Shown here piece by piece: positions 5,824 to 29,901 of a stretch of 64,000 nucleotides of DNA (the first letter of the stretch is position 1; each line of letters opens with the position of its first letter). The stretch spans positions 1,184,001 to 1,248,000 of the forward strand of contig OZ252098.1 of NCBI GenBank assembly GCA_965248355.1, read 5' to 3'. Source of the stretch: Candidatus Latescibacterota bacterium. Lineage in GTDB: Bacteria > Latescibacterota > UBA2968 > UBA8231. A program made the translations under genes and the position numbers. Under the pieces are notes generated by a model that was given only the letters and a program-made list of their open reading frames with translations, did no database searches and had not been told where the DNA came from.

Positions 5824-6930
5824 TCAGCGGATCTTCAGGGTCGCCAGTCCCATGAGCGCCAGAATGCCGGCGATGATCCAGAATCGGATGACGATCTTGG
5901 TGTCGGCCAGCCCGCACGCCTGGAAGTGGTGGTGCACGGGGGCGCTGCGGAAGAACCGCCGCCCCAGCCAGCGGATGCCGATCTTCTCCTGGATCACCAC
6001 CGAGAGCGCCTCGCCGACGAACACCCCTCCGACGATGAGGAACAGGAACTCCTGCTTCACCAGCACGACCACGGTTCCCAGCAGCCCGCCAAGGGCCATG
6101 GATCCGGTGTCCCCCATGATGACGTTGGCCGGGTAGGAATTGAACCACAGGAAGCCGAGACAGGCGCCGAAGACGGTGCAGCAGATGATGGTGACCTCGC
6201 CGGCCCCGGGGGTGAAGGGAAAGATGAGGAAGTCCGAGATGCGCGCGTGACTGGCCACGTAGGCGAAGACCCCGTAGACGGCCACGGCGAAGGCCGCGGG
6301 CACCACGGCGAGCCCGTCGATGCCGTCGGCGATGTTCACGGAGTTGGCGATGGCCACGAGGGTGAAGGCGATGAAGGGGACGTAGCCGAGGCCGAGATCG
6401 ATGACCGGGGTCTTGACGAAGGGCAGGAAGAGCTTGGTGGCCAGACCCTCGGGCATGGGCGACAGGGGCTCGATGACAAAGGCCAGGCCGAAGGCCAGGC
6501 CGAAGAGGGCCTGGAGCACGAGCTTGGCCGATTCCGAGAGCCCGCGGTCGCTCGTGCCGTGGCGGACTTTCAGATGGTCGTCGAGGTAACCGAGGCCCGC
6601 GAACCAGATCACCGCCCCCAGGCTCATGAGGACGAAGGTCTCGTGCAGGCGGCACCACAGCAGACAGCCGGCGAGCACCGAGGCCACCAGCAGGGGGCCG
6701 CCATAGGTCTTGGGGGCGCGGGACTTGGCCGGAGGAAAGTCGAAGCTGCGGCGCGTATCGCGGCGGCCGCCGCGGTAGAGGGCGAGGATGACCCGGTCGC
6801 CGAGGAGGATGGTGAGCACCAGGGCGGTGATGGCCCCGCCGATGGCGCGGAAGCTGATCGAGTCGAGCAGCCGCAGGAAGGACAGGGCCTCGACGCTTTC
6901 GTTCAGGTAGGTTCCCAGATAGTAGAGCAT
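5824..6930 (-). CDS. mraY: Phospho-N-acetylmuramoyl-pentapeptide transferase (divergent MraY)
   Basis: ISFRAIGG, YLDDHLK, ANSVNIADGIDGL, FLWFNSYPA, MGDTGSMALG, APVHHHFQ; the usual GTPTMGG motif reads RAPKTYGG. Confidence 0.9.
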   Translation of the reverse strand: MLYYLGTYLNESVEALSFLRLLDSISFRAIGGAITALVLTILLGDRVILALYRGGRRDTRRSFDFPPAKSRAPKTYGGPLLVASVLAGCLLWCRLHETFVLMSLGAVIWFAGLGYLDDHLKVRHGTSDRGLSESAKLVLQALFGLAFGLAFVIEPLSPMPEGLATKLFLPFVKTPVIDLGLGYVPFIAFTLVAIANSVNIADGIDGLAVVPAAFAVAVYGVFAYVASHARISDFLIFPFTPGAGEVTIICCTVFGACLGFLWFNSYPANVIMGDTGSMALGGLLGTVVVLVKQEFLFLIVGGVFVGEALSVVIQEKIGIRWLGRRFFRSAPVHHHFQACGLADTKIVIRFWIIAGILALMGLATLKIR

Positions 6931-6934
6931 GGGA

Positions 6935-8989
6935 TCAGCAGGCCGATTGGCCCATGCGCTCCAGGCCCTCGCGGACTCGGCGGGACAGGGAGTCCAGGCT
7001 GTCCTTCAACGGGAAGGCCGGTTCGAAGTTCGGTGAGGTGGACAGGATCTGCTCCACGTCGGCGGCCACCTCCTCCGGCTGCAGCACCCGCCGCTCCAGC
7101 AGGCCCTCCAGGGCGTGCACCGTCTCCTGGCGGCAGCGCCAGTCCGGATGCACGTAGAACCGGCGCAGGTCCGCCAGGCGCTCGGCGCGGCAGGTGACCC
7201 GGCCGAGGGCCCCCAGGGCGGCTGCGACCACGGAGCTCACGCCGTCGCCCAGGGACTCGACGAGGGCCGCTTCCACCTCCTCGTCCCCCGGAGTCGCCTG
7301 CTCGCCGAGGAGGCGGGCGGCGGCGACGCGCACCTCGAAGTAGGGATCATCGGAGAGGGCCTCCAGGACCGCGGACCGGCCCTGCGGACCGGCCCGCCGC
7401 AGCCCGATCATGGACAGGGGGAAGTCGATCGCGTTCCGCCGCAGGATGCCGGGGTGACGGTAGTCGCCGCCGGCGAGGCGCTGCAGCGGGCTGGCCGGGG
7501 TGCGGTCGCCGATCAGGGCGAGCACCAGGGGCAGGCGTTCCTCCCAGGCCAGCAGGCCCACGAGCTTGACCCCCACGTTGCGGCGGCCGTAGGGGATCTC
7601 GTACCAGCTCTCCGACGCCAGGTTCCGGTCGGCCTGGTAACGCAGGAAGGCCAGCTCCATCGGGCACAGGGCCTCCACCCCTCCCGCCTCGGCGATCCGG
7701 CTCCGCACGTGGCGCAGCAGACGATTCGGATCGGCCGGCACCCCGGCAGACCCGGCCACGGGGTACTCGAGTCTCAGGGGCGGCGGACGGAGGCCCTGCC
7801 TCAGGCTGTCGATCTCGCCGAGGATGGCCTCCAGGCTGTCGCGCCGCGGCGCCGAGGCGGCGGCGGCGGCCATGCGCCCGCGCTCGTCCGGTCCGTCGAG
7901 GAGCTCGAGGATGGCGCCGGCGAGACGGGACCCGCTGACCGCCAGATCGACGCGCCCATCCATGCGCCAGCTGGCCTCCTCGAACAGAACCCGGGCGGCT
8001 CCGAGCCCCTGAAGGGCCATGGCGTTGACCGCCTGGTGATCCTCGGCCGCCGTCGACAGCGGCAGGATCACCGCCGGCAGACCGCACACGCCGACCTCGG
8101 TGAGGGTGCTCATGCCGCCCCTGCAGACCACGAGGTCGGCAGCGGCGTAGGCGGTCTCGATCTCCTCCATGTAGCCGAACCGGCGGTACCACTGCTCGAG
8201 ATCCTGGAGGCCGGTCCGCTCCAGGGCGCCGGCGGTGTCCGCCACGGGGTCGTAGTCCTCCGAGACGTGGGCCCCCGTGCCGTGCAGGATGAGCAGCTCG
8301 TCGGCCCGGTTCGCCAGCAGCGGCAGGGCTTCGACCACGGCCCGGTTGATGGTCCTCGACCCCTGCGATCCTCCGAATATGAAGACGACGAGGCGATCTC
8401 CCTCGATCTCCCAGACCGCCCTCGCTCCCTCCCGGTCGAGGCGGGTCAGCTCGCGGCGCACCGGGAACCCGACCACCGCCACCCGCTTCATGTCGAACCA
8501 GCGGGCGGCTTGCTCGAAGACGACGCCGATGCGGTCGGCGATGCGACCGACGGCCTGGTTCAGCAGCCCGGGATGGGCGTTCGGCTCGTAGGCGAAGACC
8601 CTCGCCCGGCTCAGTCCGACCTTGCGCAGCAGACCGCTGGCGAACAGGATCGGAGCGCTCACGAAACCACCGGTGGCGAAGATCACATGGGGCCGGAACC
8701 GCAGCAGGACGAGGACCGCTCCGGCGACGCCGGCGGCCAGGACGAGGCTGAAGCGGAGCAGCGGCCAGGCGCGACGGGTGCGCGGAAAGGGCCTGGAAGG
8801 CAGCCGCCGCAGCGGATAGCCCCGGGCCGGCACGACGCGCTCCTCCAGCCGCCCCCGGACCCCCACGTACAGGAATCGAGCCTCGGGCTGGCGGCGCCGG
8901 ATCTCGTCGGCCACGGCCAGCGCCGGGTACACATGGCCGCCGGTACCGCCGCCGGTGAACAGGTATCTCACGGACGAAGGGCCGATCAT
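6935..8989 (-). CDS. murG: MurG-like GlcNAc transferase (GT28) fused to a C-terminal ~285 aa HEAT-repeat-like domain
   Basis: GGGTGGHVYPA, GGFVSAP, YEPN, GFPVR, GGSQGS, RGGMSTLTE, DHQAVNA in first ~400 aa; then LSDDPYFEVRVAAARLLG, LGDGVSSVVAAALGALG, HPDWRCRQETVHAL. Confidence 0.88.
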   Translation of the reverse strand: MIGPSSVRYLFTGGGTGGHVYPALAVADEIRRRQPEARFLYVGVRGRLEERVVPARGYPLRRLPSRPFPRTRRAWPLLRFSLVLAAGVAGAVLVLLRFRPHVIFATGGFVSAPILFASGLLRKVGLSRARVFAYEPNAHPGLLNQAVGRIADRIGVVFEQAARWFDMKRVAVVGFPVRRELTRLDREGARAVWEIEGDRLVVFIFGGSQGSRTINRAVVEALPLLANRADELLILHGTGAHVSEDYDPVADTAGALERTGLQDLEQWYRRFGYMEEIETAYAAADLVVCRGGMSTLTEVGVCGLPAVILPLSTAAEDHQAVNAMALQGLGAARVLFEEASWRMDGRVDLAVSGSRLAGAILELLDGPDERGRMAAAAASAPRRDSLEAILGEIDSLRQGLRPPPLRLEYPVAGSAGVPADPNRLLRHVRSRIAEAGGVEALCPMELAFLRYQADRNLASESWYEIPYGRRNVGVKLVGLLAWEERLPLVLALIGDRTPASPLQRLAGGDYRHPGILRRNAIDFPLSMIGLRRAGPQGRSAVLEALSDDPYFEVRVAAARLLGEQATPGDEEVEAALVESLGDGVSSVVAAALGALGRVTCRAERLADLRRFYVHPDWRCRQETVHALEGLLERRVLQPEEVAADVEQILSTSPNFEPAFPLKDSLDSLSRRVREGLERMGQSAC

Positions 8990-9082
8990 GTCGTCGCCGC
9001 GGGGGGGCGCGGGCGACTGCGTCGGAGGGGGAGCTGCGAGGGAGGGAGGCCCCTCGCCCGGGGTGGCTCAAGGGTCTGGTCC

Positions 9083-9111
9083 AGTATACACAGCGGTCCC
9101 AGGTCCGACAA
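9083..9111 (-). promoter_or_regulatory. Candidate promoter for murG-mraY
   Basis: Minus strand TTGTCG (9111-9106), 17 nt, TATACT (9088-9083). Confidence 0.55.
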
Positions 9112-9124
9112 GCTCCGCCACGGC

Positions 9125-9874
9125 TCAGATCATGGTCACCAGGTCCGCCGGCAGCCATCCGCCGAGACCGTTGTCCAGGCGGACCAGGAGCCACTCCCCC
9201 TCGCGGCGCTCCACGGTCACCTTCGTGCCCTCGTGAACGACGAACACGGGGGTCTGCCCGAGGTCGGGGCCGCCTCTCGCCTGTCCCTGGATAGCGGTGA
9301 CCACCGCCTCGGAGAGGGTGAGCTCGCGGTGCAGGCGCGTGCCGGCGAAGGCTCCGAACCCCAGGATCCCGCCGAGGCAGAGGCCGAGGGCCACCACCGC
9401 GGCCGGACCGGAGCCGCGCAGCAGGCGCCAGCTGGCCGCGGCGGCCAGCCCGAGCAGGCTCAGGGAGAGTCCGGCGAAGAGCTCGTTCGAGGTCGGCCAG
9501 AGGTAGAGCTCGTAGAGGAAGGCGCCGTCCTCTTCCTCTTCGCGGTCCCGCTTGATGCGGCGCAGGAACCGCAGGTTGGCCAGCACGTCCTCGTCCCTGG
9601 GCGCCACTCTCCGGGCGCGCTCGTACCAGACGATGGCCTCGCCCAGGCGGCCGTCCTTGAAGCAGGCGTTTCCGAGGTTGTAGAACAGGCGCTCGTCCCG
9701 GACCCCGGTGCCGGACGCCGCCAGGTAGCGCTGCCGGGCGCCGGCGAACTCGCCTCGCCGGTAGAGATCGTTGCCCTCGGCGTAGAGCCCCGCGGCGGCG
9801 GACTGGGCGGCGGCCTCGCCCACGGCGAGAACCGTGAACAGTCCCGCCGCCAGGAGGCGCAAGGGCCGGATCAC
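9125..9874 (-). CDS. batE: BatE-like TPR + SH3 protein
   Basis: GTG 9874 overlaps batD stop (GTGA); signal peptide, YAEGNDLY..G, YNLGNA.FK.G.LGEAI.WYERA, two TM helices, C-terminal SH3b (HEGTKV...WLLVRL.NG..GWLP). Confidence 0.8.
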   Translation of the reverse strand: MIRPLRLLAAGLFTVLAVGEAAAQSAAAGLYAEGNDLYRRGEFAGARQRYLAASGTGVRDERLFYNLGNACFKDGRLGEAIVWYERARRVAPRDEDVLANLRFLRRIKRDREEEEDGAFLYELYLWPTSNELFAGLSLSLLGLAAAASWRLLRGSGPAAVVALGLCLGGILGFGAFAGTRLHRELTLSEAVVTAIQGQARGGPDLGQTPVFVVHEGTKVTVERREGEWLLVRLDNGLGGWLPADLVTMI

Positions 9875-11658
9875 GACAGCGCCTTCCGGAGGAGGGCCAT
9901 CGCCTCCTCGGTCTCCGCGAGCAGTTCCTCCCGGGTCCCGCGGTCGGTGTTGGCGGGCGCGTAGCGGCCGAACTCGCAGCGCTCCAGTACGGCGTCCACC
10001 CGGTCGACGAGGGCGGGGTCGACGCCCCGGTCCTCCAGCTCCTGCCGGCAACGGTCCCGGGTCAGACCGGGCGCCGGCCGGTTTCCCTGGTCGGCGATGA
10101 AGGCGACCACGGCCTCCTGCAGGGCGCCGTGAAAGCCGTCGCCCTCCGCCGCTCTCCGGCCCGCTTCCCGCAGGCGGCCGGCCAGCTCGCCGCCGGACCG
10201 ACGCCGGCGAGCGTAGGCCGCATCCTTCTCCAGCCTGCGGCGATGGCGGTGCCAGGAGACCAGGGCCAGGTAGCCCAGGGGCAGCAGGGCGTGGGCGAAC
10301 CAGTAGTAGCCGCTGCGGTACAGGGGTGAGGCGGCGCCGATGTGCGCCACGTCGGGCTTGATGTGCCGGATGTCGCGTCCGAGCCGCTCGATCTCGCGCC
10401 GCGTCAGGTCGTACCCCTCCCCGGCGGCGGCTGCGGCGCTGTCCGGGCGGCTGTGAATCGCCATGGGCGCGCTCGAGGCCGTGCGGTACCGGTGGGACGC
10501 GGGATCGAAGTAGGCCACTCTCAGGGCCGGGATCTCCAGACGGCCTTCGCGCCCGGGGATCAGGATGTACTCGAGCCTCCTCGCAGCCCTGTACCGGCCG
10601 TCGGCGGAGCGTCCTTCCTCCACCTCCACCTTGGGCTCGTAGACCTCGAAGCCCCGGGGATGCAAGGCCGGCTCCGGGATGCTCTGCACGTTGCCGGTGC
10701 CCGTGATCGACACCTTCAGGGTGACCGGATCGCCGACGCGCACATCCCGGGGCCGGGCCTCGACGGAGATGCCGAACTCGCCCACGGCCCCCGCGAAGTC
10801 TCCGGGCCTCCCCTGTTCCGGTAGAGGTCGGACGTGGATGGAGACGGGCTCGCTGCGGATCATCAAGGCTCGACTGCGTCCGAAGATGGGGTCTTCCAGC
10901 AAGGAGCAGGTCAGCCCCAGGGGATCGATGACCTGGGAGCCGGAAGCGGTGGGGAACAGCACGACGTGGCGCAGGGGGGCCACCTGGAACGGCAGCCCCT
11001 GGATCACCTCGCGATGGGGGTCCAGCCGCGAGGCGGCGAACAACTCCTTGACCCAGAACCCGGTGTACTCCGGCACCTCGGCGAGCCGGGGGCCGCGCAG
11101 GTGGTACCGGTAGCACAGATCGAAGCGCACGTTCACCTGCTCTCCCACGTACGCCGTGTCCCGGTCGGCCTGCACCCGCACGAAGAGGTCGTCCTCGAGC
11201 TCCCGCTCTCCGGCCTCGCCGTCTCGCTCCGGCGTCCGCGCGGCGGTCTTGCCGAGGACGTGCACCTCCACCTCTTCCGTGGTCAGGACCTCGCCCTCCG
11301 CCTGCAGACGCGCGGGACCGAGCGTGAACCGGCCCGGGTTCCGGGCGTAGAGGGTGTACTTCAGCTCCCGGGTGAACCGCGCCCCCCTGTGGTCGTGGGA
11401 CTCCATGTCCATCACCGAGGGACCATGGACGATGAACTCCCGCAGGTCGATGGTGGGCGCCGCCAGGTGGCTCAGGGGGGTCTCCGCGCTCAGACGCAGG
11501 GTCAGCTGGATCGGTTGAGACGCGGAGACCTGGCTGCGGTCCACGGCCAGGGTGAACTCGATCTCCGGCCGGGCGGGTCCTGCCGACAGGAGCACGAGGG
11601 CCGCCATGAATTGCAGTCGGCGGGCCGGAAGGCGGGCCGGTACAGGGTTACCAGTCAC
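9871..11658 (-). CDS. batD: BatD family protein
   Basis: Signal peptide, repeated Ig-like modules (PGRFTLGPA, AYVGEQV, FAGAVGEF, VGDPVTL..SITGTGN, YFDP...YRT), DIRHIK, TM, C-terminal RYAP; start GTG 11658 or ATG 11607. Confidence 0.85.
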   Translation of the reverse strand: MTGNPVPARLPARRLQFMAALVLLSAGPARPEIEFTLAVDRSQVSASQPIQLTLRLSAETPLSHLAAPTIDLREFIVHGPSVMDMESHDHRGARFTRELKYTLYARNPGRFTLGPARLQAEGEVLTTEEVEVHVLGKTAARTPERDGEAGERELEDDLFVRVQADRDTAYVGEQVNVRFDLCYRYHLRGPRLAEVPEYTGFWVKELFAASRLDPHREVIQGLPFQVAPLRHVVLFPTASGSQVIDPLGLTCSLLEDPIFGRSRALMIRSEPVSIHVRPLPEQGRPGDFAGAVGEFGISVEARPRDVRVGDPVTLKVSITGTGNVQSIPEPALHPRGFEVYEPKVEVEEGRSADGRYRAARRLEYILIPGREGRLEIPALRVAYFDPASHRYRTASSAPMAIHSRPDSAAAAAGEGYDLTRREIERLGRDIRHIKPDVAHIGAASPLYRSGYYWFAHALLPLGYLALVSWHRHRRRLEKDAAYARRRRSGGELAGRLREAGRRAAEGDGFHGALQEAVVAFIADQGNRPAPGLTRDRCRQELEDRGVDPALVDRVDAVLERCEFGRYAPANTDRGTREELLAETEEAMALLRKALS

Positions 11659-12397
11659 GGGCCTCGTCGCCCCCCCCGCGGGCGCGGTAACGCCGCTCCT
11701 GGGCCTCCTGCTCCCGATCGCGGAAGGCGTCGAGCAGGCGCTCCGCCTCCTCGCGGTCCAGGCCGCCCTCCTCCGCCGGGGGCGGCGCCTGCGCCTCGCC
11801 GTCCTCGTCATCGGGCTCCGGTGGCCCCTCGTCGGGCTCCGGAGAGGAGGATGGCCGCTGCTGCTGTTGCTCCTCCCCTTCCGGGGGATCCCGCTGATCC
11901 CCGTCCGGGGAATCCTGCTCCCCTCCGTCCGGGGGATCCTCCTGATTCTCACCGCCCTGCGGCTGGGGCGGCGGCAGCCGCTGCAGGGCGAGCTCCAGGT
12001 TCGCCTTGGCGTCGGCGTCGCCGGGGACCCGCTGCAGGGCCTGCCGATAGGCTTCGGCGGCGGCCGGATAGTCCTGCAGCTGGAAGTGGGTGTTCCCCTT
12101 GTTGTAGTGACCGCTCGCCGACAGGGCCGGGTCGGCGGCGGCGGCCACCCTCTCGAACTCGCGCAGGGCTCTCTCGAAGTCGCCGAGCCGGAACTGGGCG
12201 TCGCCCACATTGAGATGGAGGCGAGCCGACTCCGGCCGCTCCACGAGGGCCTCCTTGTACATCTGCAGCGCTTCCTCGTAGCGTCCCGCCTCGTACAAAG
12301 CGCGGGCGGCCTCGTTCCGGGAGACGGCTCGATCGCCGATGCTGCGCGCCTGCGCCGCAGAGGCCGCGAGCAGCAGGACCAGAGCCAGCGCTCTCAC
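11648..12397 (-). CDS. batC: BatC-like TPR protein with acidic Q/E/P-rich linker
   Basis: GTG 12397 overlaps batB stop; signal peptide, TPRs (YNKGNTHF, ADAKANLELA), low-complexity linker, EEAERLLDA...RDW C-terminus. Confidence 0.85.
   Translation of the reverse strand: MRALALVLLLAASAAQARSIGDRAVSRNEAARALYEAGRYEEALQMYKEALVERPESARLHLNVGDAQFRLGDFERALREFERVAAAADPALSASGHYNKGNTHFQLQDYPAAAEAYRQALQRVPGDADAKANLELALQRLPPPQPQGGENQEDPPDGGEQDSPDGDQRDPPEGEEQQQQRPSSSPEPDEGPPEPDDEDGEAQAPPPAEEGGLDREEAERLLDAFRDREQEAQERRYRARGGGDEARDW
11867..11938 (-). repeat. Three imperfect 24-bp tandem repeats within batC
   Basis: Encode DPPDGGEQ / DSPDGDQR / DPPEGEEQ. Confidence 0.6.
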
Positions 12398-13422
12398 GCG
12401 AACCTCCCCCGCCACTCCCTCCGGCCGCGGGACCGCTCGGAGAGCAACCCCTCGGCCAGGAAGCAGGCCAGGGCCAGGGCCAGGGGGATCTGGAAGCGTT
12501 CCTCGTAGCGGGTGAAGCGCTCGGCTCCGAGCTCCTTCTGCTGCAGGCCGGAGATCCGGTCGGCCACGTCCTCCAACTCCCGGCCCGTGAGACTGCTGCG
12601 CCAGTAGGCGCCCTCCCCGGCGGCGGCCACCTCGCGCAGGGCGGCCTCGTCGAGACGGGACTTCACATAGTTGCCGTCGCGGTCCTTGTGGTAGTCCAGG
12701 CGGCTCCCGTCTTCGGACCCCAGGGGAATCAGGTCCCCCTCCGGCGAGCCGACGCCGATGCAGAACAGGCGGACTCCCCGGTCGGCCAGCTGACCCGCGG
12801 CGTCGGCGGCCGAGCCCGTGTGCGCCTCGCCGTCGCTGAAGAGGACGGCCACCTTGTCGTTCCGGTCCTCGGGGTCGAAGACCCCCCCCGCCAGCTCGAG
12901 GGCCCGGGCCAGGGAGGTCCCCTGGGACGGAATGGCGTTCACGTCCACCGCGCCAAGGAGCAGGCGCAGAGCCGCGGTGTCGAGGGTCAGGGGACACTGG
13001 ACGTAGGCGTTGGCGGCGAACACGACGAGAGCGACACGGTCGCCCTGGAGGTCGTCCAGCAGCTTGCCCATGGCCTGCCGCGCCCGTTCGAGCCGGTTCG
13101 GACGCACGTCCTCGGTGAGCATGCTGCGCGACAGATCGAGAAGGAGGACCACGTCCACGCCGCGCCGCTGGGCCATCTCCAGGCGCACCCCGAACCGGGG
13201 GCCCGTGAGGGCCAGCGCCAGCAGCCCCAGGCCGGCCACGAGGAGGGCGGACTTCACGTGCTGCCGGGTGCGGCTCACGCTCCGGATGAGGCGGGGAGCC
13301 ACGGCGGCATGGGCCAGGCGCTCGAGGTCGCGCCGGCGGCGGCTGTGGGCCCAGGCCGCGAACCAGGCCGCCAGCGGCACCAGGAGCAGCAGCCATTGGT
13401 TGTGCTCGGCGGCGAAGCGCAT
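12394..13422 (-). CDS. batB: BatB-like VWA domain membrane protein
   Basis: N-terminal TMs, ALTGPRFG, MIDAS DLSRSM, PNRLERA, CPLTLD, GTSL, FSDGE, SRLDE..L, C-terminal TM. Confidence 0.88.
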   Translation of the reverse strand: MRFAAEHNQWLLLLVPLAAWFAAWAHSRRRRDLERLAHAAVAPRLIRSVSRTRQHVKSALLVAGLGLLALALTGPRFGVRLEMAQRRGVDVVLLLDLSRSMLTEDVRPNRLERARQAMGKLLDDLQGDRVALVVFAANAYVQCPLTLDTAALRLLLGAVDVNAIPSQGTSLARALELAGGVFDPEDRNDKVAVLFSDGEAHTGSAADAAGQLADRGVRLFCIGVGSPEGDLIPLGSEDGSRLDYHKDRDGNYVKSRLDEAALREVAAAGEGAYWRSSLTGRELEDVADRISGLQQKELGAERFTRYEERFQIPLALALACFLAEGLLSERSRGRREWRGRFA

Positions 13423-13426
13423 GGTC

Positions 13427-14398: not shown

Positions 14399-14401
14399 GG
14401 G

Positions 14402-15370: not shown

Positions 15371-15383
15371 CGGGCCGGACCCG

Positions 15384-16826: not shown

Positions 16827-16851
16827 GTGCGGTGCCTCTCGTGCATGTGGC

Positions 16852-20091: not shown

Positions 20092-20870
20092 CGGCGCCAG
20101 CGCCTCGACTCGAGGACGCGCGTGGTGAGGAACAGGCAGAAGAAGATGAAACTCAGGTAGAAGAGAACGTCGGCGGTGTCGATGACGCCGCGCTGGAAGT
20201 CCTGCAGGTGCTGGATGATCGACAGGTAGGAGAGCAGCTTGGCCGCCGTGGGACCGGCGAAGCTCGCCGACCAGTCGATCAGCCACAGGAGCAGCAGCGC
20301 TCCGAAGGAGAGCAGCACGGCGACGATCTGGTTCTCCGTGAGGGACGAGGCCAGGACGCCGACGGCGACGAAGGTGCCTCCGAGGAGCAGGTAGCCGAGA
20401 TAGGCGGAGCCGATGGGCCCCCAGTCCGGGTCGCCGTAGACCTCGAGGATGAGGCAGAAGACGAGGGTCAGGGCGACGATGATGGTGTAGAGGGTGAGGG
20501 CCGCGAAGAACTTGCCGAGCAGGACCTGCACCGTCGAGATGGGTGAGGTCATGAGCAGCTCGATGGTGCCGCTCTTCTTCTCCTCCGCGAAGAGCCGCAT
20601 GGTCAGCATGGGCACCACGAGGAGCCAGATGAAGTCCATGACCGCGAAGAACTGGGTGACCACCATCTCGTTGAGGTTCAGGCTGGGCATGGCCCCCTGC
20701 ATGAACTGCTGGCGCTGACTGAACTGAAGGCACCAGAAGTTGAACTGCATCAGGATGTTGCGGAACAGGTACCCGGACAGGAACAGGAAGACGCCGGCGA
20801 TCACGTAGGCCACGGGCGAGACGAAATAGGAGCGCAGCTCCTTGGTGTACATGGCGAGGAAGTTGCGCAT
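20088..20870 (-). CDS. ABC-2 permease, GldF-like
   Basis: KELRSYFVSPVAY, PMLTMRLFAEEKKSGTIELLMTSP, LGKF, SSLTENQIVA, FQRGVID. Confidence 0.92.
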   Translation of the reverse strand: MRNFLAMYTKELRSYFVSPVAYVIAGVFLFLSGYLFRNILMQFNFWCLQFSQRQQFMQGAMPSLNLNEMVVTQFFAVMDFIWLLVVPMLTMRLFAEEKKSGTIELLMTSPISTVQVLLGKFFAALTLYTIIVALTLVFCLILEVYGDPDWGPIGSAYLGYLLLGGTFVAVGVLASSLTENQIVAVLLSFGALLLLWLIDWSASFAGPTAAKLLSYLSIIQHLQDFQRGVIDTADVLFYLSFIFFCLFLTTRVLESRRWRR

Positions 20871-21832
20871 CACTGGACCTCTTCGGCTTCGGAGGTGAGA
20901 CGCAGGAAGATGTCTTCCAGGGTCATGTCGAGGCTGCGCAGCTCGCGCAGGCCGTAACCGCCGTCGACGACCGCCTTGGCCAGGGGATCGCGCAGGTCCT
21001 GCCCCGGAGCGGCGGTCACCACGTAGGCCCCTTCGTCGGCAGGGCCCTCGGGGCCCTCCGCGCCGGTCTCCTCCTTGGCCTCGAGCACGCCCGGCAGCCC
21101 CCGAAGCAGGCCGAGGACGTCCTCCCGGGGCCCGGCCACGCGGGCCCGCAGCAGCTCGCCCTCTTTCAACTGCTCCGTCAGGCTCTCCGGCGATCCCTGG
21201 CCGACGATGCGGCCCTTGTCGATGATGACCACCTGCTCACAGGTCATGGACACCTCCGGCAGGATGTGGGTGGAGAGCACGATCGTATGCTCCCCCCGCA
21301 GCGACTTGATCATCTCGCGGATCTCGATGATCTGCTTGGGGTCGAGGCCCACCGTCGGCTCGTCCAGGATCAGCACGCTCGGGTTGTGCACCAGGGCCTG
21401 GGCCAGGCCCACGCGCTGGCGGTAGCCCTTGGAGAGATGGCCGATCAGGCTGCGCCGCACGTGGGCGACGCCCGTCTTCTCCATGGTCTCGTCGATGCGG
21501 GAGGACATGACCGCCGAGGGCACGCCCTTGATGCGGGCCACGAAGCCGAGGTAGGCCTCCACGGTCATGTCGCTGTAGAGGGGCGGCAACTCGGGCAGGT
21601 ACCCGATCCGCCGCCGCACCTCCATCGACTCCTCGGTGACGTCGAAGCCGTCGACGGTCGCCGTCCCCGAGGAGGGAGGCAGATAGCAGGTGACGATGCG
21701 CATGGTCGTCGTCTTGCCCGCCCCGTTGGGGCCGAGAAAGCCCATGATTTTCCCGGTCTCGGCGCGGAAGGTGACGTTGTCGATGGCCGTCACCTCCCCG
21801 TAGTGCTTGGACAGCTCGCGAACTTCGATCAC
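20870..21832 (-). CDS. ABC transporter ATP-binding protein, GldA-like
   Basis: GPNGAGKTT, LSKGYRQRVGLAQA, LDEPTVGLDPKQI, STHILPEV, TLEDIFLRLT. Confidence 0.93.
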   Translation of the reverse strand: MIEVRELSKHYGEVTAIDNVTFRAETGKIMGFLGPNGAGKTTTMRIVTCYLPPSSGTATVDGFDVTEESMEVRRRIGYLPELPPLYSDMTVEAYLGFVARIKGVPSAVMSSRIDETMEKTGVAHVRRSLIGHLSKGYRQRVGLAQALVHNPSVLILDEPTVGLDPKQIIEIREMIKSLRGEHTIVLSTHILPEVSMTCEQVVIIDKGRIVGQGSPESLTEQLKEGELLRARVAGPREDVLGLLRGLPGVLEAKEETGAEGPEGPADEGAYVVTAAPGQDLRDPLAKAVVDGGYGLRELRSLDMTLEDIFLRLTSEAEEVQ

Positions 21833-21846
21833 GGATATGGCTCCCT

Positions 21847-22725
21847 TCAGTTGCGGCTCATGCGGCCCTGGAAGAAACGGGCCAGCGGTTTCACGTGGTC
21901 CCGGGTGGCGTCGATGCGGATCTCGTCGACGCCGAGCCTGCGAAAGGCGTGGGTGCGCTGCCGGGCGGCCTCCCGGCGCAGCGCGGCGAAGCGGTCGCGG
22001 GCCTCGGCGTGACCGCTGTCGACGATCAGCTGCTCGCCGGTCTCCGCGTCCCGCAGGGTGACGAAGCCCACGTCGGGCAGCTCCATCTCCCGGGGGTCCT
22101 CCACGGTCACGGCGATCACGTCGTGGCGCCGGGCGGCGCGCTGCATGGCGCGCTCGTAGCCGGTGTCGAGGAAGTCGGAGATGACGAAAACCACCGCGTG
22201 CCGGGATATGACCCGGTCGAGGGTCTCCAGGGCGGTGGCGATCGAGGTGCCCCGGCCACGGGGGCGGTGGTAGAGCAACTCGCGGATGACGCGCAGCACG
22301 TGGCGGCGGCCCTTCTTGGGGGGCACGAAGACCTCCACGGCGTCGGTGAAGATCAGCAGGCCGGCCCGGTCGTTGTTGCGGATCGCCGAGAAGGCCAGCA
22401 GAGCGGAGATCTCCACCGAGACCTCGCCCTTCATCCGGGGGCCCGAGCCGAAAGCGCCGGAAGCGCTGGCGTCGACCACGAGAAGGACGGTCAGCTCGCG
22501 CTCCTCGTCGAAGACCTTCACGAAGGGCTTGCCTCCGGCGCGGGCGGTCACGTTCCAGTCGATGGTGCGCACGTCGTCCCCCGGCTGGTACTCCCTCACC
22601 TCGGCGAACTGCATCCCGTGACCCTTGAAGACGGAGTGATACTCGCCGGCGAAGAGGTCGCTCACCAGGCGGCCGGCCTGGATCTCGATGCGGTGAACCT
22701 TGTCGAGGATCTCCTTGGGGACCAT
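21847..22725 (-). CDS. DUF58 domain protein (VWA-like)
   Basis: GEYHSVFKGHGMQFAEVREYQPGDDVRTIDWNVTAR, EERELT, DASAS, ISDF. Confidence 0.93.
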   Translation of the reverse strand: MVPKEILDKVHRIEIQAGRLVSDLFAGEYHSVFKGHGMQFAEVREYQPGDDVRTIDWNVTARAGGKPFVKVFDEERELTVLLVVDASASGAFGSGPRMKGEVSVEISALLAFSAIRNNDRAGLLIFTDAVEVFVPPKKGRRHVLRVIRELLYHRPRGRGTSIATALETLDRVISRHAVVFVISDFLDTGYERAMQRAARRHDVIAVTVEDPREMELPDVGFVTLRDAETGEQLIVDSGHAEARDRFAALRREAARQRTHAFRRLGVDEIRIDATRDHVKPLARFFQGRMSRN

Positions 22726-22729
22726 GGCC

Positions 22730-23725
22730 TCAGGGCACCTCGACGTGATCGAAGAGCTGTTCCACGATGCGGTCGGAGTCGATCTGTTCGGCCTCGGCCT
22801 CGTAACTGGTGGCCACGCGATGGCGCAGCACGTCGGGGCCGACGGCCTTCACATCCTCGGGGGTCACGTAGCCGCGGCGCCGGATGAAGGCGTGGGCCCG
22901 GGCGGCGCGGGCCAGGAACAGCGTCGCCCTCGGCGAGGCGCCGTACTCGATGAGGGGCGCGAGCTCCTCGAGGCCGGCCGCGCCCGGCTCTCGGGTGGTC
23001 TGCACCAGATCGACGATGTAGTCCTTGATCTTGTCGTCCATGTAGACCAGGCGGATCGATTCGCGCAACCGCAGAATGTCGTCCAGACCGGCTACCGCCT
23101 CGATGGGAATCTCGCGGTCCTCCATCATGCGCTCGAGGATCTGCCTCTCCTCGTCGCGAGCCGGGTAGTCCACACGGACCTTGAGCATGAAGCGATCGAT
23201 CTGCGCTTCGGGCAGGGGATAGGTCCCCTCCTGCTCGATCGGGTTCTGGGTGGCCATGACCAGGAACGGATCGTCGAGGGCGTAGCTCTCGTCCCCGATC
23301 GTCACCTGGCGTTCCTGCATGGCTTCGAGCAGCGCGCTCTGCACCTTGGCCGGGGCGCGGTTGATCTCGTCGGCGAGGATGAGGTTGGCGAAGATGGGCC
23401 CCTTGCGGGCCACGAACTCGCCCGAGTGCTGCTGGTAGATCAGCGTGCCCGTGAGATCCGCCGGGAGCAGATCGGGTGTGAACTGGATGCGGTTGAAGCG
23501 GCCTCGAATGATGCGCGCCAGACTGCTGACCGTCAGGGTCTTGGCCAGGCCCGGCACGCCTTCGAGCAGGATGTGCCCGCCGCACAGGAAGCCGATGAAG
23601 ATCCGCTCCACCATCTGCCGCTGGCCGACGATGACGCGGTCCATCTCGGCCAGGATGCGGCCCAGGAGCAGACTCTCCTCCTCGATGCGCGCCGTGAGGG
23701 CGCCGATGTCCGGGTTGGCCTGCAC
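22730..23725 (-). CDS. moxR: MoxR family AAA+ ATPase
   Basis: HILLEGVPGLAKT, RIQFTPDLLPAD, DEINRAPAKVQSALLEAM, ATQNPIEQEGTYPLPEAQIDRF, GASPRA. Confidence 0.96.
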   Translation of the reverse strand: MQANPDIGALTARIEEESLLLGRILAEMDRVIVGQRQMVERIFIGFLCGGHILLEGVPGLAKTLTVSSLARIIRGRFNRIQFTPDLLPADLTGTLIYQQHSGEFVARKGPIFANLILADEINRAPAKVQSALLEAMQERQVTIGDESYALDDPFLVMATQNPIEQEGTYPLPEAQIDRFMLKVRVDYPARDEERQILERMMEDREIPIEAVAGLDDILRLRESIRLVYMDDKIKDYIVDLVQTTREPGAAGLEELAPLIEYGASPRATLFLARAARAHAFIRRRGYVTPEDVKAVGPDVLRHRVATSYEAEAEQIDSDRIVEQLFDHVEVP

Positions 23726-23790
23726 GGAATCTCAGCACCCTCCCCGGGCGGTCGTGGTCTCGAGCGGTGTCATTTCCCCGTCGTGAGAAC

Positions 23791-24315
23791 TCAAGGCGAG
23801 GCGGTGCTGTCCCCTTCCTGGAAGCTCACCCATTCCTCCGGAGGGCGTCCCACGTGGGGCAGCAGTTGACGGGCGTTGGCAGCCAGCTCGGAGCTCGGAT
23901 AGTTGTCGATGACGGCCTGGTAGGCGGCGCGCGCGGCATCGAGGTCGCCGAGATGCTCCTCGAGGATGAAGGCGATCATGAACTGCGACTCATCGGCCTC
24001 GTCGCTGTCGGGATACTCGGCCAGGATGCGCTCGTACTGGGCCAGGGCGCCCATCATGTCGCCGCCCTGCTGGCGCAGAATGGCCAGCTGCTTCAACGCC
24101 TGAGGCCGGCCCCCATCCTCCGGGTGGACCTGCAGGTAGGCTTCGAGAAGCTCGACCGCCGCGGACGCTTGGGTCGAGTCCCGCGCCGCCGCCCGGGCCG
24201 CCTGGAGGGCTTCGTCCAACTGTTGATCGGCCGAGGGCCCGCTGCATCCGGCCCCGACCCACAGCATGGCGGCCCCGATCATCGGGGGGATCCTGGCGGC
24301 CCATTGGCTGCTCAT
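23791..24315 (-). CDS. TPR lipoprotein (CpoB/BamD-like repeats)
   Basis: ATG 24315; lipobox-like VGAGC; TPRs ending YPDSDEAD and YPSSELAANA. Confidence 0.75.
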   Translation of the reverse strand: MSSQWAARIPPMIGAAMLWVGAGCSGPSADQQLDEALQAARAAARDSTQASAAVELLEAYLQVHPEDGGRPQALKQLAILRQQGGDMMGALAQYERILAEYPDSDEADESQFMIAFILEEHLGDLDAARAAYQAVIDNYPSSELAANARQLLPHVGRPPEEWVSFQEGDSTASP

Positions 24316-24415
24316 CTCACTGCACACCTGCTGTCTCTCCGGTCTGGCGCGGCTGGCACCAACGACCCTCACATCGAGAAAAAGACGCCCCGAGTGGCCG
24401 CCGGTTCCCTCGCCT

Positions 24416-24742
24416 TCAACTGTCTTCCGACTTGGAGGAGGCCGGCTTCCTGGCCGAGTCGCCTTTGCCGCCCTCGCCCGACTTGGAGGACGCAGGCTTC
24501 GAGTCGGGCGTGTCGGCCTTGGCCGCCTTCTTGTAGTTGTCGCTCCGGTAGTCGGTGATGTAGAACCCGGAGCCCTTGAACAGCAGGCCCCCACCGGTCC
24601 CGATCAGCCGGCGCACCCGGCCCCGGCCCGAGCCCTCCGGGCATTCGCTCCGGGGACATCTCTCCAGCGGCTCGGCGGTGATTCTCTGGAGCGCCTCGAA
24701 CTGGTGTCCGCACGTCTTGCATTCATATTCGTAGGTCGGCAT
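24416..24742 (-). CDS. FmdB family zinc-ribbon protein
   Basis: MPTYEYECKTCGHQFE...CPRSEC...FKGSGFYITDY plus K/S-rich tail. Confidence 0.92.
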   Translation of the reverse strand: MPTYEYECKTCGHQFEALQRITAEPLERCPRSECPEGSGRGRVRRLIGTGGGLLFKGSGFYITDYRSDNYKKAAKADTPDSKPASSKSGEGGKGDSARKPASSKSEDS

Positions 24743-24782
24743 GTGACATCTTCCCGGTGCTGCGCGGCCGAGGGAAACTAGA

Positions 24783-24811
24783 ATACTACGCAGGTATGTT
24801 GGAATGGGCAA
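24783..24811 (-). promoter_or_regulatory. Candidate promoter for fmdB-TPR-moxR-gld-bat unit
   Basis: Minus strand TTGCCC (24811-24806), 17 nt, TAGTAT (24788-24783) in an AT-richer gap. Confidence 0.5.
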
Positions 24812-24839
24812 CGCCTGCACCCGCCCTGCGGACCCGTCC

Positions 24840-26942
24840 CTACCCTCCGCCGGGGAGGCCCGCCTCGGCCGGCAGGTCATCGGTCTCCTCGAGCACCAAG
24901 ACCGGCAGATCCTCCCTCTTCAGGGGCCGGACTCGACCCCGGCCGTCGATCCTCAGAAGGGTCAGCTCGGAATTCACGCGGCGAGAGGGGCCAAAACTCA
25001 CCCGTCCGGAGGCTCCTTCGTAGTGGCGCAGATCGGCGAGGTATCGCCGCAGGCCGGTGCGGCTGTGGTGGCCGGCCCGCCAGCCCTCCATGACGAGGCG
25101 CGCGGCATCGTATCCCGCGCTGGCGTAGCCCGGATCCCGCCCGGTCCGCGAGCGGAAGGCGTCGACGAAGTTCCGCTCGTGCTCCGATCCCTGGCGCCGG
25201 GAGACGAAGATGCAACCCTTCACGTGCTGGCGCTCCGTGGACGGCAATTCCGAGATCGCCTCGGGATCGTACCACCTATCGTTGCCGAGCAACTGCGTCT
25301 GGATTCGGTGGAAGCGCAACTGCGGTGCGATGGTGCGGGCGTCTTCGAAGAGCTCGATGATCACGGCCGCGCCGTCGATGGACTCGATGAAGATCTCCGC
25401 CGAGTCCGGTGGTTCCTCGACGGGAACCACCGCCTGATCGACGAGTTCCCGGAAGGTCGATTCGCCCTCCAGGCTCGTGTCCAGAAGGGCCCCCTCGAGG
25501 GAGTCGAGCAGCTCGGGGCGGATCCTCTCCGGGAGCTCGAGGGAGAAACCGATCTGACGCAACTCCTGGAACTGCGCCTGAAAGTCCTTCTGCTCCCCGG
25601 GATAGTACCATTCGCTGTGGACGATCCGTCCGCCGTTGGCCACGGCGGCCGCGGTGAAGGCCTTCTCGAAGGCGTGCCCGTCGTCGCTGAGCGGCGAGAG
25701 GATGGCGAGGGTGTGCAGGCCGAGCACGAGGGTGGCGTACTCGGCCAGGGCCTGGCCTTGAACCTCGGGAATCGGGTTCAGCTGGAAAATGTGTCGCCCC
25801 AGGGTATCCAGACCGCTCTGCTGGGCCAGTGGGGCGATGAGCGGCACTCCCGCCGCTTCGGCCACGGCGGCGGCGGCGGCGCAGGAGGGGGAGAACACGG
25901 GACCGACGATCGCTTGCACATCCGCCTCCCCGGCCAGGAAGCGGGCACCGGAGACGACGCGAACGAGCCGGTCGCCGTCGCTCTGGTAGATGGGCACCTC
26001 CTCTTCCTCGAAGTCCTCGTACTCCGCGCCGGTGTCGACGACGACGATGTCGAAGGGCTTTCCGAGCTCGTCGTTGGCCAACTCGACACCCTCGAGCAGA
26101 TCGACCCCGATGGCCCCCTCGCGGCCGGAGAAGGGCGCGAGCACCCCGAGCCGCGGCACTCCCCGACGACGGGCCGGCTTGCCGGCTGCCGGCTCACGCG
26201 GAGGCCGGTCAGGCGCTCCTCCCTCCAGCGCGGAGCGCGCGAGACGGTGGAACATCCCTGTCTCACCCGCGCTGTCGATGTACGCCGACAGCCGGCTGCG
26301 GGCGAGCTCGACCCAGCCGAGCCGTCCGTACCAGCGCGCCTCGCCATAGAGCAGGGCATGGCGCATTCCCCGGGACCCCAGGCGGCGGATGCGGTCCTGC
26401 ATCTCCGTATCGAGCGACCGGTTCCTCACCATTCCGGCCAGACGCTCGGCGGCGCTGGCCTGGAGCGCCACCGGGCCCGACCCTTCGAGAAGCCGGGCGT
26501 ACTCGAGGGCGGCCTCGTCGTGGCGGCCCAGCACGTAGTACCCGTCGCCCGCGACCATCCGGGCATCGCCGGCATAGCGCCCGCCCGGGGACTCCCGAAG
26601 GAGGCGCCGAGCCGCCCGCACCGCACCCGCGGCGTCGTCCAGACGCAACCGGCTGCGGCCGAGCATCAGCAGCGCCGCCATCGAGCGATGATTGGCCGGC
26701 AACTCGGTGACGGCGGCAAAGCGCTCGCTCGCCGCCCGCCAGTGACCCTCTTCGCAGGCAGCAAGGCCCTGCGAGAACAGGCGCTCCGCCGCGCGCGAGT
26801 AGCGTCCATCCTCGACGGCCTGGGAAGCATGGGGCCCGCTCAGGAGGGCCAGCGCGCACAGGGCGCTGACGAGCCGGGAGATGCCTTGTCCCCGCTGCGG
26901 GGCCCGGTTACATTCGCCGAGGGCTCGCGCCTCCATCCTCAC
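24840..26942 (-). CDS. Exported TPR + type I periplasmic-binding-fold protein (LpoA/LppC-like)
   Basis: AAGGAGGT RBS; signal peptide; N-terminal TPRs; LGVLAPFSG, IVGPVFS, GYDAARL, YEGASGRVSF typical of the LivJ/LppC fold. Confidence 0.75.
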   Translation of the reverse strand: MRMEARALGECNRAPQRGQGISRLVSALCALALLSGPHASQAVEDGRYSRAAERLFSQGLAACEEGHWRAASERFAAVTELPANHRSMAALLMLGRSRLRLDDAAGAVRAARRLLRESPGGRYAGDARMVAGDGYYVLGRHDEAALEYARLLEGSGPVALQASAAERLAGMVRNRSLDTEMQDRIRRLGSRGMRHALLYGEARWYGRLGWVELARSRLSAYIDSAGETGMFHRLARSALEGGAPDRPPREPAAGKPARRRGVPRLGVLAPFSGREGAIGVDLLEGVELANDELGKPFDIVVVDTGAEYEDFEEEEVPIYQSDGDRLVRVVSGARFLAGEADVQAIVGPVFSPSCAAAAAVAEAAGVPLIAPLAQQSGLDTLGRHIFQLNPIPEVQGQALAEYATLVLGLHTLAILSPLSDDGHAFEKAFTAAAVANGGRIVHSEWYYPGEQKDFQAQFQELRQIGFSLELPERIRPELLDSLEGALLDTSLEGESTFRELVDQAVVPVEEPPDSAEIFIESIDGAAVIIELFEDARTIAPQLRFHRIQTQLLGNDRWYDPEAISELPSTERQHVKGCIFVSRRQGSEHERNFVDAFRSRTGRDPGYASAGYDAARLVMEGWRAGHHSRTGLRRYLADLRHYEGASGRVSFGPSRRVNSELTLLRIDGRGRVRPLKREDLPVLVLEETDDLPAEAGLPGGG

Positions 26943-29881: not shown

Positions 29882-29901
29882 GCTCGAGGCTCCCTTCCGT
29901 G

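Follow-up and report, generated by a model that had tools for sequence, protein, structure and literature searches.

A GldAFG-like ABC module with DUF4340 lies inside the predicted MoxR/Bat operon of a Latescibacterota genome and is conserved there among relatives

The cluster of genes encoding the MoxR ATPase, a DUF58 protein and the Bat proteins is widespread, and what it does has stayed unclear ever since an aerotolerance screen gave it its name; for the Bat proteins of Leptospira, the accessible part of the published study states that no specific function has been experimentally demonstrated (PMC3557215). ATP-binding cassette (ABC) modules resembling GldA, GldF and GldG of gliding bacteria and found outside that context, as well as DUF4340 proteins, have almost no functional literature, apart from an essential DUF4340 domain reported in Verrucomicrobium. 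In archaea, a GldG-like DUF4350 protein (arCOG01314) was described in predicted operons with a MoxR ATPase, proteins with von Willebrand factor A (VWA) domains and immunoglobulin (Ig)-like membrane proteins (Makarova et al. 2015, PMC5898192, in the sections available). The present analysis deals with a stretch of 64,000 nt from a Candidatus Latescibacterota bacterium (contig OZ252098.1, positions 1,184,001 to 1,248,000; hereafter the window), in which a Bat/MoxR gene cluster was found to enclose a gldA-gldF-gldG-like ABC module followed by a DUF4340 gene.

Open reading frames (ORFs) were picked from a mechanical ORF list by their third-position GC content, a choice made because the window has about 70% G+C, and were named with Pfam and NCBIfam. 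Together these procedures delineated 17 successive minus-strand genes running from position 26942 to 5824, transcribed in the order TPR plus periplasmic-binding-fold gene, zinc ribbon, TPR lipoprotein, moxR, DUF58, gldA, gldF, gldG, DUF4340, orfX, batA to batE, murG-HEAT and mraY, and flanked at both ends by plus-strand genes, clpX-like at 26972-28492 and a membrane ORF of 159 amino acids (aa) at 5344-5823 (Table 1). The tight core of this block consists of the 12 genes from moxR to batE (9125-23725), whose successive junctions measure 4, 14, -4, -4, 25, 13, 3, 4, -4, -11 and -4 nt, negative values being overlaps. In this core, the ABC module and the DUF4340 gene stand between DUF58 and orfX, and orfX is followed by batA to batE. 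An earlier note on this DNA had read from the letters alone the 17 co-oriented genes, the junction lengths including the 25 nt after the GldG-like gene, and the position of the GldA/F/G-DUF4340 module between DUF58 and the bat genes; the ORF and family scans bear out the first and the last, and the measured gaps match exactly. The constituents of a Bat/MoxR cluster are all present, namely a MoxR of the AAA_3 family with an adjacent DUF58 gene, BatA and BatB bearing a metal-ion-dependent adhesion site (MIDAS), BatD, and the TPR proteins BatC and BatE. The contiguous order moxR, DUF58, small membrane gene, batA was on the other hand not found, as 6 kb holding gldA, gldF, gldG and DUF4340 intervene. 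The position between DUF58 and batA is usually taken by DUF4381.

Table 1. Features of the cluster in order of transcription, all on the minus strand. Scores are in bits, with model cut-offs where given; aa, amino acids; TM, transmembrane; AF2, AlphaFold2; pLDDT, predicted local distance difference test; pTM, predicted template modelling score.
Feature	Position	Strand	Size and architecture	Evidence
TPR + type-I periplasmic-binding-protein fold, LpoA-like in architecture only	24840..26942	-	700 aa	Peripla_BP_6 93; TPR_16
Promoter-like footprint 5' of zinc-ribbon gene	24783..24811	-	TTGCCC-17-TAGTAT	read from sequence; 8/12 consensus positions, below scan threshold
FmdB-family CxxC zinc-ribbon protein	24416..24742	-	108 aa	TIGR02605 54.8 (cut-off 31.3); Zn_ribbon_8
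TPR lipoprotein, weakly YbgF/BamD-like	23791..24315	-	174 aa	lipobox ...LWVGAGC after ATG 24315; TPR_6 52.9
MoxR-type AAA+ ATPase, first gene of tight core	22730..23725	-	331 aa	AAA_3 (PF07726) 217; AAA_lid_2; Walker B LILADE
DUF58 protein, VWA-like	21847..22725	-	292 aa, no TM-like segment	PF01882 275; DxSxS at D85
ABC ATPase, GldA-like	20870..21832	-	320 aa	best NCBIfam model GldA TIGR03522 311.6 (cut-off 402.6); Walker A and B
ABC-2 permease, GldF-like	20088..20873	-	261 aa, 6 TM-like segments	TIGR03518 159.9 (cut-off 288.5); ABC2_membrane_2 (PF12679) 56.7
GldG-like auxiliary protein	16852..20091	-	1079 aa, two fused TM-GIFT-TM units	ABC_transp_aux (PF09822) 144; IFT52_GIFT 66.9; DUF4350 66; DUF7088
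DUF4340 protein	15384..16826	-	480 aa, N-terminal membrane helix + three beta-rich repeats	PF14238 188.8; AF2 pLDDT 89.1, pTM 0.77
orfX, short BatD paralogue, DUF4381-like	14402..15370	-	322 aa	hhalign to BatD 297-567: 95%, E 3.4e-8; AF2 pLDDT 89.2
BatA, membrane VWA protein	13427..14398	-	323 aa	BatA N-terminal domain 27.0 (cut-off 25.9); VWA 77.5; DxSxS at D98
BatB, membrane VWA protein	12394..13422	-	342 aa	VWA_2, VWA; BatB_Lepto 115.5, below cut-off; DxSxS at D96
BatC, TPR protein	11648..12397	-	249 aa, signal peptide	TPR families; BatC_Lepto 92.7 (cut-off 175)
BatD	9871..11658	-	595 aa: signal peptide, Ig-like domains, TM near residue 450, helical tail	PF13584 93 (cut-off 24.1); hydropathy
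BatE, last gene of tight core	9125..9874	-	249 aa, TM-like 158-176	TPR_2 30; SH3_3 26.7 (cut-off 27)
Candidate sigma-70-like promoter in the 135-nt batE-murG spacer	9083..9111	-	TTGTCG-17-TATACT	motif scan
MurG (GT28) with C-terminal HEAT-repeat domain	6935..8989	-	684 aa, HEAT domain ~340 aa	Glyco_transf_28 PF03033 81, PF04101 94.5; HEAT_2
MraY, 4 nt after murG	5824..6930	-	368 aa	TIGR00445 267.9 (cut-off 192.05)

For the comparison with relatives, homologues of the DUF4340 protein were aligned and used in one scan of species-representative genomes with 10-kb flanks, which gave 80 loci onto which 19 proteins of the window were mapped by tblastn. Most of these loci are titled Latescibacterota, some carry Gemmatimonad- or Handelsmanbacteria names, one is from Marinimicrobia, ten are from Acidobacteriota and one is an untitled 'uncultured bacterium'. 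Conflicting titles (Latescibacterota, Gemmatimonadaceae, Gemmatimonas phototrophica, Handelsmanbacteria) were seen on loci more than 80% identical in their proteins (L001-L003, L017 and L018), and the submitters' taxonomic labels on these metagenome-assembled genomes (MAGs) are unreliable.

The embedding, meaning DUF58 directly 5' of gldA and orfX directly 3' of DUF4340, was observed in 55 of the 65 loci that could be assessed on both sides, so that the persistence of gldAFG-DUF4340 inside the bat operon of relatives, proposed in the earlier note as a check, was indeed found. The ten exceptions are eight Acidobacteriota loci holding only gldA-gldF-gldG-DUF4340, the Marinimicrobia locus (L066) and L039. 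All 12 genes from moxR to batE are present in 49 loci and are out of order in none of them (0/49), over a range of locus GC from 0.41 to 0.71 and with median identities of 74% for MoxR, 44% for DUF4340 and 40% for orfX. Packing is also retained, with median junctions from moxR to batE of -20 to +25 nt (53-65 loci per junction); the moxR-DUF58 gap, 4 nt in the window, has a median of 14 nt over 57 loci. On a tree built from gldA, gldF and DUF4340 (70 rows, rooted on nine Acidobacteriota loci, with 11 loci devoid of one of the three proteins omitted), the embedded loci form one clade, and the locus counts consequently express retention after one or two events and not many separate joinings. Judged from these sequences, a joining of two known modules at the level of the operon is conserved in this lineage.

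Since the arrangement is conserved, colinear and tight, and since a second permutation of it exists in the Marinimicrobia MAG, a functional coupling of the MoxR/Bat and ABC parts is a reasonable inference. In that MAG, the genes run ClpB, a 173-aa TPR protein, moxR, DUF58, an orfX homologue, gldA, gldF, a single-length gldG and DUF4340; batA to batE are absent, and convergent rhomboid, recO and proS genes come next. Therefore, the MoxR/DUF58/orfX trio is tied there to the ABC module in another order and without the VWA Bat proteins. Two further loci, L068 and L069, keep the gene order of the window with a GldG of single length, from which it follows that the embedding predates the GldG duplication; GldG is doubled in 61 loci and single in L066, L068, L069 and 11 loci holding the gld cassette only. 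The explanation that we consider probable is thus that the putative 12-gene moxR-batE operon joins the MoxR/DUF58/BatD-like/BatA-E set with the GldAFG-like ABC module and DUF4340, and that its products, presumably made from one transcript, serve one envelope process.

Several observations weigh against a common process. All loci were reached through one DUF4340 subfamily, which places gld-free bat operons of the same phylum outside the sample, and canonical bat operons without an ABC module are described in the parts of the Leptospira and Borrelia reports at hand (PMC3557215, PMC5700661). All embedded loci may descend from one insertion, or from two when L066 is counted, in which case the 55 loci are not independent. 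Eight Acidobacteriota loci assessable on both sides consist of gldAFG-DUF4340 with no MoxR or Bat gene in their flanks of up to 10 kb on each side; MoxR and Bat genes were not detected either in three gld-only loci on shorter contigs, the whole gld-only set being ten Acidobacteriota loci and L076. In two MAGs from different subclades, L005 and L039, paired deletions hit most of moxR/DUF58 as well as orfX through batC/D or batE (sites 4362-4975 and 11452-11549 in L005; 1425-1623 and 8234-8995 in L039, with no N in those stretches), whereas gldA through DUF4340 are intact. Because both loci keep the gld module intact, the ABC module does not need the Bat part; if the deletions are real, MoxR and Bat halves were lost together and the ABC module is independent, an artefact of MAG assembly being possible. 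The spacer between the TPR lipoprotein gene and moxR is variable and carries terminator-like T-runs in some loci, none being present in the 65 nt of the window. Finally, the membrane topology used in the following paragraphs was derived by simple hydropathy scanning and by judging the positive-inside rule by eye.

Part of this evidence would also be expected if the arrangement were a historical accident, whereby a gldAFG-DUF4340 cassette was inserted once in a bat operon and carried along since, the two modules sharing a transcript while working in unrelated processes. Each module stands on its own in other phyla, the gld module survives in L005 and L039 where the MoxR and Bat genes were lost, and the single clade of embedded loci implies few independent events. 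Such an accident is nevertheless less easy to reconcile with the lack of any rearrangement in 49 complete loci despite the spread in GC and the 40-45% median identity of the faster-evolving proteins, with junctions that are still overlapping or tiny, and with L066, where the same modules are joined in another order and without batA-E. Moreover, the association of GldG-like, MoxR and vWA proteins recurs independently in archaea, according to the sections of the archaeal survey available (PMC5898192). Consequently, we regard the accident as a possible explanation, albeit a doubtful one. Taken with the Acidobacteriota cassettes that stand alone, the deletion variants do suggest that, within a shared envelope process, the ABC module would be the autonomous core and the MoxR/Bat proteins its accessories in this lineage.

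The domain anatomy of the encoded proteins was compared with that of their named relatives. GldA-, GldF- and GldG-type models are the best matches of the three ABC proteins (the GldG-like protein reaching 102 bits on TIGR03521, cut-off 389.85), yet all three proteins stay below the equivalog cut-offs and are therefore called Gld-like and not gliding proteins. The architecture of an ABC-2 permease with an ABC_transp_aux (GIFT) auxiliary protein is present. The GldG-like protein is a single tandem-duplicated protein of 1079 aa, its halves being 40% identical over 449 aa (E 1e-80). A Foldseek search with the AF2 model of the DUF4340 protein returned 0 matches in PDB at E <= 1e-3, and for its homologue P0012 in the protein atlas, with PF14238 excluded, only two 77-aa hypothetical clusters below 0.9 were found, giving no lead. 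The orfX of the window has no Pfam match itself; among 31 of its relatives, 11 match DUF4381 and 5 match BatD. Its AF2 model has a signal peptide and an Ig-like sandwich; next comes a TM helix with basic residues behind it, and finally a helical tail, which the positive-inside rule would place in the cytoplasm; Foldseek returned generic Ig-domain matches only, and the helical tail had no match. A predicted complex of orfX with the DUF4340 protein, made without controls, reached a score of 0.18 (mark 0.32) and speaks neither for nor against binding.

Regarding the MoxR/Bat proteins, the MIDAS motif DxSxS is intact in DUF58, BatA and BatB, and all Leptospira-specific NCBIfam 'exception' models for Bat proteins score below their cut-offs. 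Hydropathy and the termini of the proteins suggest that MoxR, DUF58 and GldA are cytoplasmic. Basic residues follow the first hydrophobic segment of BatA and BatB, so that their VWA domains are probably periplasmic, in agreement with the topology reported for Borrelia BB0173 in the part of that study available (PMC5700661).

In the mechanism proposed for a shared envelope process, MoxR and the VWA-like adaptor DUF58 would act in the cytoplasm, where GldA would power the GldF permease, while the two GIFT domains, the three DUF4340 repeats, the VWA domains of BatA and BatB, the Ig-like domains of orfX and BatD and the TPR proteins would build one periplasmic assembly anchored in the inner membrane. 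MoxR and DUF58 may act on the cytoplasmic tails of the BatD-like proteins to assemble or remodel this complex. The minimal conserved set, as seen in L066, consists of a TPR lipoprotein, MoxR, DUF58, a BatD-like protein and GldAFG-DUF4340, and this set suggests that the BatD-like single-pass proteins bridge MoxR/DUF58 to the periplasmic GIFT and DUF4340 parts; the VWA domains of BatA/B and the TPR proteins would then extend the periplasmic assembly. Most likely, this process would export or handle an envelope component linked to a glycan or a lipid. This substrate is suggested by the ABC-2 class of the exporter and the relatives of the GIFT fold, since ABC-2 exporters often handle polyprenyl-linked glycans and GIFT-fold relatives occur in glycosylation; the match to OST48_N is weak.

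A bolder form of the shared-process explanation, which we put forward tentatively and hold to be speculative, is that the MoxR/DUF58/Bat proteins and the GldAFG-like ABC/DUF4340 proteins belong as subunits to a single trans-envelope machine that had gone unrecognised, in which an AAA+ chaperone and an ABC motor would together assemble or drive a periplasmic scaffold of GIFT, DUF4340, VWA, Ig-like and TPR parts for the export or positioning of an envelope glycoconjugate. If true, it would give the first mechanistic handle on the Bat system and on DUF4340, and it would unite both with the archaeal GldG-like/MoxR/vWA systems in a single ancient class. In any event, a lineage that locks both modules in one operon turns a shared envelope process into a testable idea, to which the permuted and deletion variants add, and studies of interaction and co-expression can draw on the locus for a delimited list of candidate partners.

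The two genes that follow batE were considered separately. The MurG part of the murG-HEAT product aligns to the MurG structures 7d1i, 3s2u and 1f0k (E ~1e-27) and has the GGTGGH loop; the whole protein reaches 203.5 bits on TIGR01133 (cut-off 250.25) while both GT28 domains exceed their own cut-offs, and the HEAT extension may be what lowers the whole-protein score. MraY aligns end to end with 9zno, 8g01 and 4j72 (E 1e-70) and contains the DG.DGLA, MGD.GS and HHH stretches, which we take to be catalytic residues. Among loci with at least 2.5 kb beyond batE, murG-HEAT follows batE in 17 of 53; mraY comes next in 16 of them and the contig ends in the 17th. The tree, from which L026 and L041 are absent, groups 15 of these 17 loci with L039 and the window in two clades, of 16 and 5 rows; the adjacency is missing from L066, L068 and L069, from a basal clade of 4 rows and from one of 33 rows. 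After batE, L023 instead has genes for an oxidoreductase, an AAA_21 protein and DUF3226. The batE-murG spacer is never as short as 30 nt (0/17 loci, median 139 nt), as opposed to a tight murG-mraY junction (median 8 nt). In L009, about 1.6 kb separate batE from murG (17899-19487).

The promoter scan that returned the site in the batE-murG spacer found 2 sites in 11.8 kb, where shuffled sequence would be expected to give 0.2. Its -35 element (CTTGTCG) and a -10 element resembling TATACT or TATAAT are kept in ten diverged loci (L001-3, 8, 10, 13, 15, 16, 18 and 26) in which the rest of the spacer has diverged. With respect to the enzymes themselves, all of the 120 MurG-HEAT homologues listed out of 1727 measure 629-714 aa and combine HEAT repeats with at least the C-terminal GT28 domain. 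The fusion thus appears from the sequences to be a lineage-wide form, and in L059 and L049, where murG does not follow batE, it occurs at another place. In a search for MurG of canonical length, the high-identity short matches among the 120 listed of 5645 are fragment-like, and the full-length MurGs of about 360-375 aa among them are at most 46% identical and belong to other phyla, except for one record titled 'Candidatus Lat...'; nothing in these 120 shorter matches points to an additional canonical MurG in the genomes concerned, where one could still exist. The scanned ORFs of the window include no further dcw gene. As MurG-HEAT is the form of the whole lineage and MraY scores above its equivalog cut-off, both look like housekeeping enzymes; the pair probably represents the ordinary lipid I/II enzymes of the lineage, a separate unit that came to neighbour the operon in part of the lineage.

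Upstream of the tight core, the gene of the 700-aa protein is a conserved neighbour, found in 45 of the 47 loci whose sequence extends 3 kb or more 5' of moxR, and lies outside the core. Its product has no LppC/LpoA match in Pfam at E <= 1e-3 and no match to an LpoA model in NCBIfam; no LpoA chain is among its PDB matches at E <= 0.01, the best of which are LIVBP-type binding proteins, aligned with the C-terminal part. Inspection of its N-terminus by eye revealed a hydrophobic signal-like stretch with L before the cysteine, unlike a canonical lipobox. The likeliest start of the TPR gene is ATG 24315, which gives the 174-aa protein with its lipobox in place of the 267-aa ORF, and this gene stands 5' of moxR in all 47 assessable loci, L066 included. 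An identity of the TPR lipoprotein with CpoB/YbgF was tried and rejected (TIGR02795 43.4, cut-off 90.1; NF008068 42.2, cut-off 383), and no tol-pal gene was found among the window ORFs scanned. As both the LpoA and the CpoB family tests fail, a role of these proteins as regulators of penicillin-binding proteins (PBPs) is without support.

These results bear on the full model of the earlier note, by which all 17 genes (21 kb) would constitute one envelope-assembly system with a dedicated supply of lipid-linked precursor, LpoA-like and TPR proteins included. It draws on the position of murG-mraY directly after batE, which one or two clades retain even where MurG identity falls to 53%, on the LpoA-like gene upstream of most loci and, as general knowledge, on the link of the ABC-2 class to polyprenyl-linked glycans. 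However, 36 of the 53 assessable loci, all basal lineages among them, have no murG after batE, other genes hold this place in L023, and murG has a conserved promoter footprint of its own; the MurG-HEAT fusion is lineage-wide and found elsewhere in L059 and L049, MraY is of equivalog level, and the LpoA and CpoB tests fail. We therefore regard the full model as very improbable. Of its parts, a functional link of the gld module to the MoxR/Bat proteins is made reasonable by the conserved embedding, and MoxR/VWA chaperones may build their complex, but murG-mraY and the LpoA and CpoB roles find no support: the downstream pair follows batE in derived clades only, a dedicated precursor pathway disagrees with the spacer length, the promoter footprint, the housekeeping-level MraY and the patchy adjacency, the label LpoA-like describes an architecture only, and the CpoB link falls far below the family cut-offs with no tol-pal context in the scanned window ORFs. 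The note's own candidate promoter was recovered by the scan, and its caveat that the murG-mraY linkage may be positional is borne out by the 17/53 adjacency and the conserved footprint. A tempting link to peptidoglycan precursor synthesis and PBP regulation is thereby removed.

In all Latescibacterota-type loci whose contig reaches far enough upstream, tblastn places the zinc-ribbon gene between those of the LpoA-like and TPR proteins; the gene is absent from L066 and L068. A footprint TTGCs-17/18-TAtATT preceding it aligns across most of 16 diverged loci, and the zinc-ribbon and TPR-lipoprotein genes may thus form a conserved upstream unit with its own promoter-like footprint. The spacer from the TPR gene to moxR has a median of 110 nt, compared with 65 nt in the window, and its sequence is not conserved. 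Between these two genes, terminator-like GC-rich stretches and T-runs were noticed in L015, L020, L023 and L047. Sigma-54 promoters were rejected as candidates, a motif scan giving 38 matches against 50.7 expected and none in the spacers of the cluster.

With regard to the neighbouring genes, the 159-aa ORF at 5344-5823 (+) is convergent on mraY, has three TM-like segments and no family match, and has homologues at the same place after mraY in 11 loci (L001-4, 6, 13, 15, 16, 18, 26 and 41). At the other end, the ClpX-like AAA+ protein (506 aa), divergent from the cluster and in the same position in L005, falls below both ClpX equivalog cut-offs (319 vs 359; 288.7 vs 370.75), and the ClpX zinc-finger domain is not among its Pfam matches. 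Two genes from the cluster, a sigma-54-dependent response regulator (28496-30025, -) combines a receiver with Sigma54_activat and HTH_8 domains. Further on, the region 31402-59757 (-) contains L17, rpoA, S4 and secY by Pfam, and its large ORFs fit EF-Tu, EF-G, rpoB and rpoC by size and position alone; Rfam at gathering thresholds detected only three tRNAs in the window, at 60.0-60.4 kb. As the rest of the window is thus made of core housekeeping genes, the cluster lies in a stable chromosomal region. Such surroundings (recG, ribosomal and rpoBC genes) and the vertical conservation of the locus disagree with a MoxR-vWA conflict or anti-phage defence system, which a weak Pfam similarity of MoxR to bpMoxR (56 bits) might call to mind: the AAA_3 score of the same protein is far higher, and PADLOC gave no match for 16 of the 17 proteins and generic ABC-ATPase similarity only for GldA. 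A defence function is for these reasons hardly conceivable.

Taken together, the component families are all known, and no earlier description of their arrangement was found: a gld-type ABC module inside a bat operon and the MurG-HEAT fusion were both absent from the literature searched, most subscription journals lying outside that search. Compared with the MraY and MurG of dcw clusters, the window shares an MraY of equivalog level and GT28 domains that align with solved MurG, but its pair is isolated from other dcw genes, runs murG then mraY, and bears a HEAT extension of about 340 aa on MurG. With GldA/GldF/GldG of Flavobacterium johnsoniae, it shares the best-matching NCBIfam models and the ABC-2 permease with ABC_transp_aux/GIFT architecture, while differing by scores below the equivalog cut-offs, by the doubled GldG and by the adjoining DUF4340; no other gld, spr or type IX secretion system gene was seen among the window ORFs scanned. 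The stand-alone gldA-gldF-gldG-DUF4340 cassettes have the same four genes in the same order and tight packing, but with a single-length GldG and with no MoxR, DUF58 or Bat gene detected in their flanks (up to 10 kb, shorter on three contigs).

The archaeal arCOG01314-MoxR-vWA system, predicted to act in secretion or membrane remodelling, has in common with the window a GldG-like DUF4350 protein, MoxR, VWA proteins and Ig-like proteins comparable to orfX and BatD, a likeness in kind and not orthology; in the available sections of its description no ABC ATPase or permease appears, and its partners differ, being S-layer-like proteins (PMC5898192). The closest likeness in gene content is to the Bat clusters of the Bacteroides fragilis type, as in Leptospira and Borrelia (bb0170-bb0176), which in the parts of the reports available have the same MoxR, DUF58, two MIDAS VWA proteins, BatC, BatD and BatE in the same relative order (PMC3557215, PMC5700661). 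Relative to these clusters, the window has a four-gene ABC insert of 6 kb between DUF58 and the BatD-like/DUF4381-like gene, and it adds the short BatD paralogue and the conserved upstream pair of zinc-ribbon and TPR-lipoprotein genes.

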